A DNA stretch of 64,000 nucleotides from Escherichia coli (GTDB taxonomy: Bacteria > Pseudomonadota > Gammaproteobacteria > Enterobacterales > Enterobacteriaceae), in the NCBI RefSeq assembly GCF_050920415.1, contig NZ_CP169309.1, one strand, 5' to 3'. This document shows, piece by piece, positions 27,001 through 30,000 of this stretch. Made by a program: the position numbers. The first letter of the stretch is position 1, and every line of letters begins with the position of its first letter.

Positions 27001-30000
27001 GGAAACCGCCGTCGCTACCATGAAGCGCTTCCGCTGGCAGGCAATTGTCGCTCTGGCGCTAGGTATCCCGGTGATGGTCTGGGGGATGATCGGCGATAAC
27101 ATGATGGTCACCGCCGACAACCGCAGTCTGTGGTTAGTTATCGGCCTGATAACGCTGGCGGTAATGGTTTTCGCCGGCGGGCATTTTTACCGTAGCGCAT
27201 GGAAAAGCCTGCTGAACGGTGCGGCGACAATGGATACGCTGGTGGCGCTGGGTACTGGCGTGGCGTGGCTCTATTCAATGAGCGTCAACCTGTGGCCGCA
27301 GTGGTTCCCGATGGAAGCGCGACATCTTTATTACGAAGCCAGTGCGATGATTATCGGTCTGATTAATCTCGGTCATATGCTGGAAGCGCGCGCACGTCAG
27401 CGTTCTTCAAAGGCGCTGGAAAAGTTACTCGATTTAACCCCGCCGACGGCGCGCCTGGTCACTGACGAAGGTGAAAAAAGCGTGCCGCTGGCAGATGTTC
27501 AGCCTGGTATGTTACTGCGCCTGACGACCGGCGATCGCGTACCGGTAGATGGTGAAATTACCCAGGGCGAAGCGTGGCTGGATGAAGCAATGCTGACGGG
27601 CGAACCTATCCCACAGCAAAAAGGCGAAGGCGATAGCGTTCATGCAGGTACCGTGGTGCAGGACGGTAGCGTGCTGTTTCGTGCCAGTGCGGTTGGCAGC
27701 CATACTACGCTGTCACGGATCATTCGTATGGTGCGCCAGGCCCAGAGCAGTAAACCGGAAATCGGCCAGTTGGCGGATAAAATCTCTGCCGTATTTGTGC
27801 CGGTAGTGGTGGTGATTGCGCTAGTCAGTGCGGCCATCTGGTACTTCTTTGGTCCGGCACCGCAAATTGTTTATACCCTGGTGATTGCCACTACGGTACT
27901 GATTATCGCCTGCCCGTGTGCGCTGGGGCTGGCAACGCCAATGTCGATTATTTCCGGCGTCGGGCGTGCGGCTGAATTTGGCGTGCTGGTACGGGACGCC
28001 GACGCGCTGCAACGCGCCAGTACGCTCGACACCGTAGTGTTCGATAAAACCGGGACGCTGACCGAAGGGAAGCCGCAGGTTGTCGCAGTGAAAACATTTG
28101 CTGATGTTGACGAAGCGCAGGCGCTGCGTCTGGCGGCGGCACTGGAACAAGGTTCCAGCCATCCGCTGGCACGAGCGATCCTCGATAAAGCAGGCGATAT
28201 GCAACTGCCGCAGGTCAACAGCTTCCGTACATTGCGTGGGCTGGGCGTGAGCGGTGAAGCAGAAGGTCATGCGTTATTGCTGGGTAATCAGGCGTTGTTA
28301 AATGACCAGCAAGTCGATACTAAAGCGATTGAAGCAGATATTTCAGCTCAGGCATCGCAAGGGGCAACGCCTGTGCTGCTGGCGATTGACGGGAAAGCGG
28401 TGGCCCTGCTGGCGGTGCGCGATCCGTTGCGTAACGATAGCGTGGCGGCACTGCAACGTCTGCATAAAGCGGGATATCGTCTGGTGATGCTAACCGGGGA
28501 TAACCCGACCACCGCCAATGCGATCGCCAAAGAAGCAGGGATTGATGAGGTGATAGCCGGGGTGCTGCCAGACGGTAAAGCCGAAGCGATCAAACGTCTG
28601 CAAAGTGAAGGACGTCAGGTGGCAATGGTGGGTGACGGCATTAACGACGCGCCAGCACTGGCCCAGGCGGATGTCGGTATTGCGATGGGGGGCGGCAGCG
28701 ATGTTGCCATTGAAACCGCGGCGATTACCCTGATGCGCCATAGCCTGATGGGTGTTGCGGATGCGCTCGCAATTTCCCGCGCAACGCTGCGCAACATGAA
28801 GCAGAACCTGCTCGGTGCGTTTATCTACAACAGCATTGGTATTCCGGTCGCCGCCGGTATTTTGTGGCCGTTCACTGGAACCCTGCTTAACCCGGTGGTT
28901 GCCGGAGCGGCAATGGCGCTCTCGTCGATCACCGTAGTGAGTAACGCCAACCGGTTGCTGCGGTTTAAACCGAAAGAGTGATTGGTATTTACTTAATGCG
29001 TTTGTGAGATCCAGTTCTTGTTGCGCTCCTTTTATGAGTCATGCCATATAAAGTGACTGGCGCAAGGAGCGCGCAGGGGGCGGCCAATCGCCGCCGCCCC
29101 CTGCACCCCCGGGCTCTGGCGAACAAAATCGCCGCTGCGCGGTACCCTCGGCTTATCCCTTGCGGCTACCGGGTCGGGCGCGAGGTAACATCCCTGTAAA
29201 ACGCGCCCTCAGCCCACATCCATGTGGGCTGCCCCGGCCTTCAGGGAACGCCTCGGCGATTTTGACGCCACCAACACCCGTGCAGTCTTTCGTTTCAAAG
29301 CAAAAACAATTTTTCGATCATATTTAAGCTACCACTGAACAAGCCTCATAACTCCATTTGCGCCATCCCTCACCGCGCGCTAGCATGATATTTCACAAAG
29401 GGAGGTCGTATGGATCTGTTGTACCGGGTAAAAACGCTTTGGGCCGCGCTGCGCGGTAATCATTACACCTGGCCTGCTATCGATATCTCTCTTCCCGACC
29501 ATCGCCATTTTCATCTGATCGGCAGTATTCATATGGGTAGCCACGATATGGCTCCCCTGCCCACCCGTTTGCTCAAAAAGCTCAAAAACGCCGATGCGCT
29601 GATCGTCGAGGCGGATGTTTCCACCAGCGATACGCCTTTTGCCAATTTGCCTGCCTGCGAGGCGCTGGAAGAGCGCATTAGCGAGGAGCAACTCCAAAAC
29701 CTGCAGCACATTAGCCAGGAGATGGGCATTTCTCCGTCGCTCTTTTCTACCCAACCGCTGTGGCAAATCGCGATGGTTCTTCAGGCGACGCAGGCACAAA
29801 AACTGGGGCTGCGGGCAGAATATGGTATCGATTACCAGCTATTGCAGGTGGCGAAGCAACAACATAAACCCGTGATTGAACTGGAAGGGGCAGAAAACCA
29901 GATTGCCATGTTGCTCCAGCTCCCTGACAAAGGACTGGCGCTGCTGGACGATACGCTGACCCACTGGCACACCAACGCTCGTTTGCTGCAACAAATGATG

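Follow-up and report, generated by a model that had tools for sequence, protein, structure and literature searches.

A conserved multi-hairpin repeat in the copA–ybaP spacer of Escherichia coli, probably the relic half of a MITE-like element

The copA–ybaP spacer of the E. coli genome studied here holds a repeat module at about 29002–29297 (minus strand, boundaries approximate). It represents a solo instance of an interspersed repeat that is present in the Enterobacteriaceae at low copy number and has gone unannotated. We consider it probable, though well short of certain, that this copy is what remains of one half of a structured, MITE-like element. Positions are those of the window, by which we mean the whole 64-kb stretch of DNA that was analysed. 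The module was delimited from a conservation profile of 55 copies, two alignments, an nhmmer search, the conservation of its tail and an extension of its left end, the last made by setting the copies from E. coli against the inverted ends of the Silvania composite units. Its assignment to the minus strand, antisense to copA, reflects apparent selection for the fold on that strand, where the matches to the TwoAYGGAY RNA motif also lie. The module is absent from the RefSeq annotation and, at threshold, from Rfam, which leaves an annotation gap in the best-studied genome. Whether or not it is linked to TwoAYGGAY, essentially all E. coli have this element of 280 nt, in which over 20 base pairs covary.

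The copA–ybaP spacer and its alleles

The spacer lies between copA (26477–28981, plus strand), encoding a Cu+ P-type ATPase, and ybaP (29410–30204, plus strand), encoding a protein of the TraB/GumN family, both as given by the ORF list and the RefSeq annotation. The original prediction had placed a small HTH regulator gene, ybaQ, between these two genes in K-12 and had noted its absence from a 428-bp spacer here in which every ORF is shorter than 60 aa. Both the placement and the observation were correct: the K-12 order is ybaP–ybaQ–copA with a spacer of 794 bp, the longest ORFs in the spacer here are of 45, 52, 55 and 38 aa (ORF list), and a tblastn search with K-12 YbaQ gave its best match (E 0.74) elsewhere in the 64-kb window. 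The K-12 spacer differs from the present one and does hold ybaQ, and no ybaQ of the kind that sequence errors might have hidden was recoverable in the spacer by tblastn.

In pairwise BLAST, homology between the window and K-12 ends at about 28977 and restarts at about 29338, and the variable segment is bounded on its left side by the stop codon of copA. The allele-specific segment was placed at 28978–29337 by this comparison, by an allele survey using joined flanks and by alignment with strains N50 and E400634; over the last ~70 bp upstream of ybaP the sequence is again common to all E. coli (alignments with K-12, N50 and E400634). The segment of ~350 bp here stands at the place of a 727-bp segment of REP/BIME and ybaQ in K-12, while short alleles in the joined-flank survey have segments of 103 bp and 242 bp. 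At least five allele classes define the spacer as a hypervariable hotspot, with the present allele in 346 of 5,426 complete E. coli genomes, one of them that of strain MFDS1022581 (module at 3,723,195–3,723,490). Other fillings include a HigA-family antitoxin, sometimes with a RelE/ParE-family toxin, REP arrays (with REP/BIME at this position in both K-12 and E400634) and a bare, simple hairpin, as in N50. An apparent doublet of the module at copA in a metagenome-assembled contig was put aside as a possible assembly chimera.

The absence of ybaQ is therefore neither a deletion nor a sequencing error: the spacer is prone to recombination, and its content here is one of five or more alternatives. 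The earlier proposal of a deletion or replacement scar can be kept as far as replacement is concerned, but the element is not the scar of ybaQ itself, as it has no similarity to ybaQ and the same element is found at unrelated loci.

Architecture and fold of the module

The window copy is matched by nhmmer at 29015–29289 (269 bits), and no second copy is present in the 64-kb window. The hairpin-dense element of the original prediction is real, although its size of about 250 bp was an underestimate: conservation within the family puts the ends at ~29002–29021 and ~29290–29297, giving ~275–295 bp. Perfect inverted repeats are present at 29073–29084/29093–29104 (12 nt), 29210–29219/29222–29231 (10 nt) and 29023–29031/29064–29072 (9 nt), together with an enclosing repeat at 29124–29139/29249–29264 (16 nt, 88%).

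The left part of the module consists of two hairpins. The terminal hairpin H1 (29021–29074) has the stem GCGCTCCTT/AAGGAGCGC (29023–29031/29064–29072) and a hypervariable loop of ~32 nt that varies between copies, with double changes in three of seven pairs of helix 1 (GCGCTCC/GGAGCGC versus CGTTCAC/GTGAACG). Hairpin H2 (29073–29104) has a perfect 12-bp G+C stem, GCAGGGGGCGGC/GCCGCCCCCTGC, and an 8-nt loop, and compensatory changes affect six of eight pairs of helix 2. The core domain (29124–29264, minus strand) is the TwoAYGGAY-like part and is closed by P1, formed by CAAAATCGCCG (29124–29134) and CGGCGATTTTG (29254–29264). This 11-bp stem closes off two hairpins, is 99.5% paired and shows covariation in three of eight pairs. 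Within it lies hairpin P3 (29210–29231, minus strand; helix 11), with an 8-bp stem, covariation in four of six pairs and a hexaloop of the form AYGGAY/ANGGAN; its minus strand reads CCCAC-AUGGAU-GUGGG, the loop being the complement of 29218–29223. Hairpin P4 (29176–29208, minus strand; helices 9 and 10) has an outer stem GGGCGCG/CGCGCCC and an inner AC/GU closing a hexaloop, and contains the minus-strand sequence UUACAGGGAUGU, whose loop AGGGAU is the complement of 29190–29195. E. coli copies share a conserved module tail (29265–29297), beginning GACGCCACCAACACCCGTGCAGTCTTT; in other genera this tail lies opposite that of a partner module in inverted orientation. The module further includes a long irregular P2 helix and a small P5 hairpin, its two 3′ hairpins are H2 and H1, and it is very G+C-rich.

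Compensatory substitutions have preserved the fold with its several hairpins. Positions 29015–29280 fold at −133.3 kcal/mol on the plus strand and −148.6 kcal/mol on the minus strand, against −102 and −115 for shuffles (z −5.8 and −6.0, respectively), and none of 200 shuffles folded as well. The RNAalifold consensus comprises 54 pairs, 22 of them compensatory. Across 51 copies, 98.3% of cells are paired versus 89.1% in shuffles, and the covariation score of 0.270 compares with 0.105 ± 0.005 in shuffles, none of 500 reaching it, and with at most 0.073 in slid controls. The minus-strand consensus has 61 pairs, 28 of them compensatory, and an energy of −78.8 versus −63.3 kcal/mol, and in the 47 pairs common to both strands there are 18 G·U cells on the minus strand versus five on the plus strand, counts that are uncorrected for shared ancestry. 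Wobble-pair asymmetry and folding energy together favour the strand antisense to copA. The 51 aligned copies had been collected with a search pattern in which three motifs were fixed (CGGGTCGGGC, CATCCATG and CCCCGGCC), so the invariance of helices 7–8 and of the P3 loop is partly a matter of ascertainment; in partner modules outside the search pattern the P3 loop is still A[U/G]GGA[U/G].

TwoAYGGAY (Rfam RF01731) is a gamma-proteobacterial motif of unknown function described by Weinberg et al. in 2010 (PMC2864571) and independently proposed to bind CsrA (PMC4333381). The covariance-model search suggested in the original prediction matched this family and no other, including CsrB, CsrC and the Rsm families, and did so below threshold: the match at 29126–29265 on the minus strand scores 30.2 bits (E 0.025, model positions 1–168) against a gathering cut-off of 43. 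Other subfamilies of the module score 33.0, 37.8 and 29.9 bits, each time on the strand expected from the orientation of the module, and no match at the gathering threshold was found in 121 kb of loci or in the window. The structured RNA entertained earlier thus stands as a conserved fold with compensatory changes and a sub-threshold Rfam match, the RNA here being a predicted one.

The likeness to TwoAYGGAY lies in a P1 stem that encloses two adjacent hairpins, whose hexaloops are AYGGAY in the published motif and, on the minus strand of the window copy, AUGGAU (P3) and AGGGAU (P4). The second of these has G rather than Y at position 2, although the corresponding loop is AUGGAU in Leclercia and Silvania copies, and the published seed itself also includes AGGGAC and AGGGAU loops. 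Seed members from Psychromonas are likewise multi-copy, show the AGGGAC variant, and have additional hairpins and tandem units after them. The module differs in falling below threshold in every subfamily tested (29.9–37.8 versus 43 bits) and in its additional P2, P5, H2 and H1 elements, iterated inverted termini and very high G+C content. As judged from sequence and predicted pairing, the resemblance may reflect either homology or convergence on the same ligand.

Distribution, composite units and known repeats

The suspicion that the element belongs to a different repeat family proved well founded. The module was detected in 5,425 of 5,426 complete E. coli genomes, at 1–10 places per genome (median 3), with no annotation under the family matches, and 56 loci were collected from at least nine enterobacterial genera. 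K-12 has two unannotated copies, at aqpZ–lysO (915,015–915,285) and yohP–dusC (2,229,119–2,229,389), the former common to E. coli and E. albertii. The gene contexts are convergent in 23 cases, tandem in 20 and divergent in one, with no fixed orientation relative to the neighbours, a genomic position typical of selfish extragenic repeats. Klebsiella copies are embedded among REPs, and module copies and Box-C-like or REP repeats replace one another at given sites. Hosts with a high copy number are Enterobacter sp. ENT03, Klebsiella pneumoniae, Atlantibacter and Leclercia. Apparent plasmid carriage in Klebsiella and E. coli was dismissed, the matching "plasmids" carrying housekeeping genes and being mislabelled pieces of chromosome, as was phage association, the one match in 2.9 million viral contigs being host aqpZ DNA. 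In the literature on intergenic repeats we found no earlier description, though an older account, for example under the name "RSA", may exist. RSA, a 152-bp repeat with six copies in K-12, does not fit this module.

Composite units of about 630 bp (~600–720 bp), in which a pair of modules lie tail-to-tail in inverted orientation, are present in Enterobacter, Atlantibacter, Leclercia, Silvania, Pseudescherichia and Pseudocitrobacter. The outer ends of these units are inverted repeats of one to three tandem units of ~18 bp (GGTGGAAnnGTTCCGTTC), the sequences outside them are inverted and not direct repeats, and no ORF is present inside. The window copy and all other E. coli copies are solo halves without the partner end, with a single weak match to the inverted partner module in 5,426 genomes, and for this reason their status as halves of a composite is inferred from the other genera. 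At copA–ybaP, alx–sstT and yohP–dusC, the three loci compared, neither the precise empty site nor the target-site duplication expected of a MITE was found, and every comparison of an occupied with an unoccupied site shows replacement of the whole spacer with unrelated flanks. No transposition event was seen, nor did the composites and loci examined reveal an autonomous partner or a transposase.

The absence of any match to REP/BIME sequences in the original prediction was borne out, as the K-12 BIME of the same spacer does not align with the element; that BIME occurs at 14–62 places per genome versus 1–10 for the module. The two kinds of repeat nonetheless resemble each other. Like REP/BIME and the REPIN doublets of E. 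coli and Pseudomonas, the module is extragenic, palindromic and mostly found behind gene ends, and it exists as singlets and inverted doublets; REP/BIME occupies the same spacer in other E. coli alleles, and REPs flank the module in Klebsiella. Unlike REP, which is a ~35-bp hairpin in hundreds of copies, the module is ~280 bp long with a multi-branch fold and 1–10 copies per genome, and no RAYT-type partner was identified. The element is presumably also distinct from ERIC. With ERIC/IRU and MITE-like repeats the family shares a non-coding, interspersed, imperfectly palindromic nature, the lack of its own transposase, terminal inverted repeats (in the composite form) and a patchy occurrence between strains. 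It differs from them in composite units of ~600–720 bp in which each half has its own conserved fold, in ends built of tandem 18-bp units, in the lack of a visible target-site duplication and in the presence of nothing but halves in E. coli.

Origin and possible functions

According to the reading we favour, the family is, or was, a non-autonomous selfish element of MITE/REPIN type, whose spread may require that one strand, in RNA or single-stranded DNA form, be folded and that a protein read the terminal units. E. coli would retain only solo halves that are no longer mobile and that may be inherited vertically or exchanged via homologous recombination in the flanking genes. At copA–ybaP its practical effect is probably no more than to supply highly stable hairpins downstream of copA, a gene otherwise without a recognisable terminator.

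That last point also bears on a reading that takes the module for a REP-like element domesticated to act in cis in the 3′ UTR of copA, or of another neighbour by read-through, with hairpins that stop or pause transcription and block 3′ exonucleases on either strand. We regard this as improbable. The location of 42 of 51 copies right after a gene end, the 23 convergent regions against only one divergent (promoter) region, the lack of another terminator behind copA, the REP/BIME or simple hairpin at the same position in other strains and the folding of both strands far better than shuffles would all suit such a role, but purifying selection against promoter insertions predicts the same positional bias, and no T-run follows any of the hairpins. 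For this purpose a hairpin alone would suffice, which leaves unexplained the 280-bp multi-domain fold, the conserved hexaloops, the strand asymmetry of wobble pairs, the inverted doublets and the iterated termini. Far less probable again, to the point of being ruled out as far as sequence comparison can test, is that the spacer is the remains of a ybaQ (or higBA) locus or conceals a gene for a small protein. ORFs of 45–55 aa are present and toxin–antitoxin genes occupy the locus in other strains, but tblastn gives no match to YbaQ, the DNA does not resemble the K-12 segment, the element recurs at unrelated loci and in unrelated genera, and in 41 of 50 copies indels break the reading frame as compared with the window copy.

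The remaining rival is unlikely but deserves fuller discussion. It takes the module for a minus-strand sRNA gene, or a family of paralogous sRNAs, that would form an enterobacterial branch of TwoAYGGAY. Two ANGGAN hairpins separated by ~28 nt would together bind a single CsrA dimer, and the RNA would be a CsrA decoy or itself under CsrA control. The SELEX consensus of CsrA is RUACARGGAUGU, and the preferred ligand presents it in a 6-nt loop closed by AC/GU (PMC7652899), as do both hairpins here: P4 (UUACAGGGAUGU) agrees with the consensus at 11 of 12 positions and P3 (CCACAUGGAUGU) at nine of 12, including ACA, GGA and GU. GGA in hairpin hexaloops with AC/GU closing pairs is also the feature shared with CsrB/CsrC/RsmX–Z, and binding of CsrA has been proposed separately for TwoAYGGAY (PMC4333381). 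Wobble asymmetry and folding energy point to the minus strand, GGA is retained in the loops of partner modules outside the search pattern, and ANGGAN loops are kept from the Enterobacteriaceae to Psychromonas, which a trans-acting RNA would explain more easily than a DNA transposition signal; read-mapping pipelines could, moreover, have missed a multi-copy sequence. On the other side, the P3 stem has eight G+C-rich pairs and very stable stems are rare among SELEX ligands (PMC7652899), the GGA of the second hairpin is lost (CGAC/CGAU) in Pseudescherichia partner modules, and a CLIP study of E. coli CsrA has no signal for ybjE or dusC in its gene-level tables. No sigma-70 promoter or intrinsic terminator was found at 28800–29600, no conserved promoter-like block is apparent by eye in the tails of E. 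coli copies, and orientation relative to the neighbours varies. Read-through cannot produce the RNA at aqpZ–lysO and copA–ybaP, where both neighbouring genes are encoded on the opposite strand. The module also differs from CsrB/CsrC/RsmX–Z in showing no promoter or terminator, in having two (at most three) binding sites versus 9–22 and in being multi-copy and dispersed.

A more ambitious version of the same idea seems to us distinctly doubtful. In it the modules, including the two in K-12, would be expressed from the strand antisense to copA as an unrecognised enterobacterial branch of TwoAYGGAY, their paired SELEX-like hairpins capturing a CsrA dimer; RNA-seq and CLIP would have missed them because they are multi-copy, and the composites of other genera, with their iteron-like ends, would be a mobile vehicle spreading a decoy for a host regulator. 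TwoAYGGAY has been an orphan since 2010 and, if the modules are its relatives, the motif would become testable in K-12 through the two unannotated copies there.

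Alleles of the copA–ybaP spacer

The 428-bp spacer between copA (which ends at 28981) and ybaP (which starts at 29410 and is followed by chiX/sroB) lies in a window that is 100% identical to E. coli strain MFDS1022581. The original prediction stated that ybaQ occupies this position in K-12 and reported no such ORF here; the K-12 order is indeed ybaP–ybaQ–copA, with a spacer of 794 bp, and the longest ORF in the spacer studied here is at most 55 aa. A tblastn search of the whole window with K-12 YbaQ gave no match. The perfect inverted repeats that had been described are also present, being 12, 10 and 9 nt long and contained in a 16-nt repeat (88%). 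The segment 29015-29280 has a folding energy of -133 kcal/mol on the plus strand and -149 kcal/mol on the minus strand, some six standard deviations below dinucleotide-shuffled controls, and no terminator was found behind copA other than these hairpins. ChiX/sroB itself was located by an Rfam match of 82 bits at 30203-30286 (minus strand), abutting the ybaP stop codon; the RefSeq record of identical sequence does not annotate it, although K-12 has chiX annotated at the same relative position.

K-12 and the window are collinear as far as the copA stop codon (~28977) and again from ~29338, and between these points lie 360 bp in the window versus 727 bp in K-12, without similarity. The K-12 segment consists of a REP/BIME array, of a kind found at 14-62 places per genome, and ybaQ, the product of which is named a HigA-family antitoxin by RefSeq. 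Further alleles, found by searching with the two conserved flanks joined, comprise a 103-bp filling whose sole feature is a simple hairpin (strain N50), this filling with REPs added (242 bp, strain E400634), ybaQ types differing in REP steps of ~100 bp, and toxin plus ybaQ. The window allele is found in only 346 of 5,426 complete genomes and has no sequence in common with any of the others, so the difference is a whole-spacer replacement and not a simple insertion or deletion. Of the suggested scar of a deletion or replacement, only the replacement stands, and as an explanation of the 'missing ybaQ' the module is ordinary.

A RelE/ParE-type toxin gene adjoins ybaQ in some strains, either intact or frameshifted. 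As the gene is frameshifted in E. coli ATCC 25922 (locus L071, 3358-4036), K-12 ybaQ looks like the orphan antitoxin of a decayed higBA-type module.

A dispersed repeat with a covarying fold

The suggestion of a different repetitive element family is borne out, since 5,425 of the 5,426 E. coli genomes have matches to the core (29015-29292), in 1-10 places each (median 3), and it recurs in other genera. Among the E. coli matches listed, none has an annotated feature beneath it, and neither RefSeq, K-12 included, nor Rfam at threshold has an entry for the module. K-12 carries copies at aqpZ–lysO and yohP–dusC with 94% identity to the window copy, the former being common to K-12 and E. albertii. 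Scanning one genome per species for a sequence pattern yielded 56 loci, distributed over Escherichia, Pseudescherichia, Pseudocitrobacter, Enterobacter, Klebsiella, Raoultella, Leclercia, Silvania and Atlantibacter. Near-identical modules in short or edge-of-contig pieces of assemblies labelled Desulfacinum, Sporobacter and Bacillus (L008, L036, L048) are most likely enterobacterial contamination. Plasmid carriage was rejected on finding that the 'plasmid' matches are mislabelled chromosome pieces, and no module was found in phage contigs.

Module length, taken over the region aligned to window 29012-29292 with ~10 bp of flank included, is very uniform: of 55 distinct copies, 48 measure 277-283 bp, and two are shorter (261 and 274 bp). 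Three loci (L010 3186-3540, L019 6571-6926 and L028 6383-6737) are 355 bp long, with a ~75-bp insertion or internal duplication near HMM positions 133-157. Where both neighbouring genes were called (44 copies), these are convergent in 23 cases, tandem in 20 (12 facing one way and 8 the other) and divergent in one; in Klebsiella the module is located among REPs.

An alignment of 51 copies yields 54 predicted pairs with RNAalifold, and 22 of these show compensatory double changes. Pair counting gives 98.3% of cells paired against 89.1 ± 0.3 in shuffles, 248 doubly changed cells against 67, and a covariation score of 0.270 against 0.105 ± 0.005, reached by none of 500 shuffles and falling to at most 0.073 with slid partners. 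Covariation is seen in hairpins H1 (terminal), H2 (12 bp) and P3, in the closing stem P1 and in the long helix P2; in H1 the stem is conserved and the ~30-nt loop hypervariable. The pattern that gathered these copies fixed CGGGTCGGGC, CATCCATG and CCCCGGCC, so helices 7-8 and the P3 loop are invariant partly by construction. Frame-breaking indels relative to the window copy in 41 of 50 copies indicate that the module is not coding, and these, with the lack of a YbaQ match, led us to reject a ybaQ remnant or small protein gene.

The reverse-complemented alignment folds better (-78.8 versus -63.3 kcal/mol), with 61 pairs, 28 of them compensatory, and at the 47 pairs that the two strands share, wobble cells number 18 on the minus strand only and 5 on the plus strand only, counts uncorrected for shared ancestry. 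This is moderate evidence, and suggests that selection acts on the fold of the strand that is antisense to copA and ybaP.

Resemblance to TwoAYGGAY and doublets in other genera

The Rfam TwoAYGGAY model aligns end to end with 29126-29265 on the minus strand (30.2 bits, E 0.025, 1.4 kb searched), and three other module subfamilies score 33.0, 37.8 and 29.9 bits, in every case on the strand that the orientation of the module predicts. None of these four reaches the gathering score of 43; of the proposed structured RNA, the conserved compensatory fold holds and the Rfam match is sub-threshold. The defining features are largely present: P1 is there, the first hexaloop is AUGGAU, and the second is AGGGAU in the window and AUGGAU in Leclercia and Silvania copies. 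The published seed includes members from Psychromonas ingrahamii that are multi-copy and have AUGGAU and AGGGAC loops, with further hairpins and tandem units after them. Its original authors considered TwoAYGGAY a probable, non-cis-regulatory RNA and gave it no function (PMC2864571); CsrA binding was proposed in a later paper (PMC4333381). The window's two hairpins, UUACAGGGAUGU and CCACAUGGAUGU, each have a six-base loop closed by AC/GU, and both fit the CsrA SELEX consensus RUACARGGAUGU (PMC7652899). We rate the module a variant of a TwoAYGGAY-type structured repeat, treating it as one that may work like, or be related to, TwoAYGGAY and not as a member. The module was not found in the searchable literature, and may have been described under another name in older work on E. 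coli repeats. Were the relation to TwoAYGGAY to hold, K-12 would have copies of an orphan RNA motif, which makes the module worth testing at the bench.

Enterobacter sp. ENT03 has a repeated unit of ~634 bp that comprises a module, an A+T-rich linker of ~100 bp and a second, diverged module that is inverted and has its TwoAYGGAY match on the opposite strand. Such tail-to-tail doublets were also found with nhmmer in Atlantibacter, Leclercia, Silvania, Pseudescherichia and Pseudocitrobacter, and no ORF was found inside them. Their outer ends are inverted repeats, with one to three tandem ~18-bp units, GGTGGAAnnGTTCCGTTC(R), outside the terminal hairpin, which look like an array of putative protein-binding sites as at transposon ends. 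Five loci (L037, L041, L042, L024 and L026) have two or three units at both ends, and each unit holds a GGAA-n3-TTCC mini-palindrome. GGTGG is recurrent in the terminal units too, and the module tail (29265-29276, and other E. coli tails) has a reverse complement, GTTGGTGGCGTC, one mismatch from the Chi site GCTGGTGG.

In E. coli and Klebsiella all modules are solo, and none of the 5,426 E. coli genomes has the inverted partner type. At both aqpZ–lysO (L006/L029/L068) and yohP–dusC (L064/L030/L039) the module is reversed in E. coli E69 and Escherichia sp. E1V33 relative to K-12, with unrelated flanks and a swapped segment that begins and ends exactly at the neighbours' stop codons; loss of different halves from an ancestral inverted doublet is one possible cause. 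Neither a precise empty site nor a target-site duplication was found at any locus compared. In a 2790-bp MAG contig (L013), copA and a module are joined to 107 bp with full identity to the dusC-side flank of the K-12 yohP–dusC copy, beyond which lie a 30-codon ORF (LLKTLQVESHRVQKVQIIPLRKDGEMEYEV) and a second, inverted module; such an arrangement is a chimera made in assembly at the repeat, or else a genuine doublet. At alx–sstT, the exact position of the module in strain 64A:C (L004, 3746-4360) is taken in K-12 (L063, 5547-5944) by a Box-C-like palindromic repeat (CCCTCTCCC...GGGAGAGGG, GGGTGAGGGG), and the Box-C-like sequence also occurs just left of several Leclercia and Silvania modules.

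Readings of the window copy and neighbouring features

In population behaviour and end structure the family is like selfish, non-autonomous extragenic repeats of the MITE/REPIN type, but is unusual among them in that each half has a large fold under selection on one strand. The window copy is probably one half of such an element, on its own and no longer able to move. Recombination in copA and ybaP would have brought it in together with its spacer, and the copy's local effect may be little beyond the placing of strong hairpins behind copA. The main rival, that the minus strand is expressed as a CsrA-binding sRNA, would suit the deep conservation of the ANGGAN loops, but we think it unlikely, as no promoter or terminator is visible, module orientation is not fixed and the second GGA is lost in one genus. 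Quite improbable, in our assessment, is a REP-like role in cis, which accounts for the position of the module but leaves its architecture unexplained.

Elsewhere in the window, a type I secretion permease/ATPase, siiEA and a TolC-family outer-membrane gene adjoin ybaT (1-23650), where K-12 has cueR; siiEA is a 20.8-kb BapA-like giant adhesin gene (1412-22186, minus strand). The interval between ybaK and ushA (31055-32210) has two extra genes, absent from K-12, of which one encodes a DUF6896 protein and the other a hypothetical protein. Between ybaL and gsk, at 37322-37392 (plus strand), there is a match just above its gathering score to naRNA4 (CssrE), an RNA derived from a REP element.
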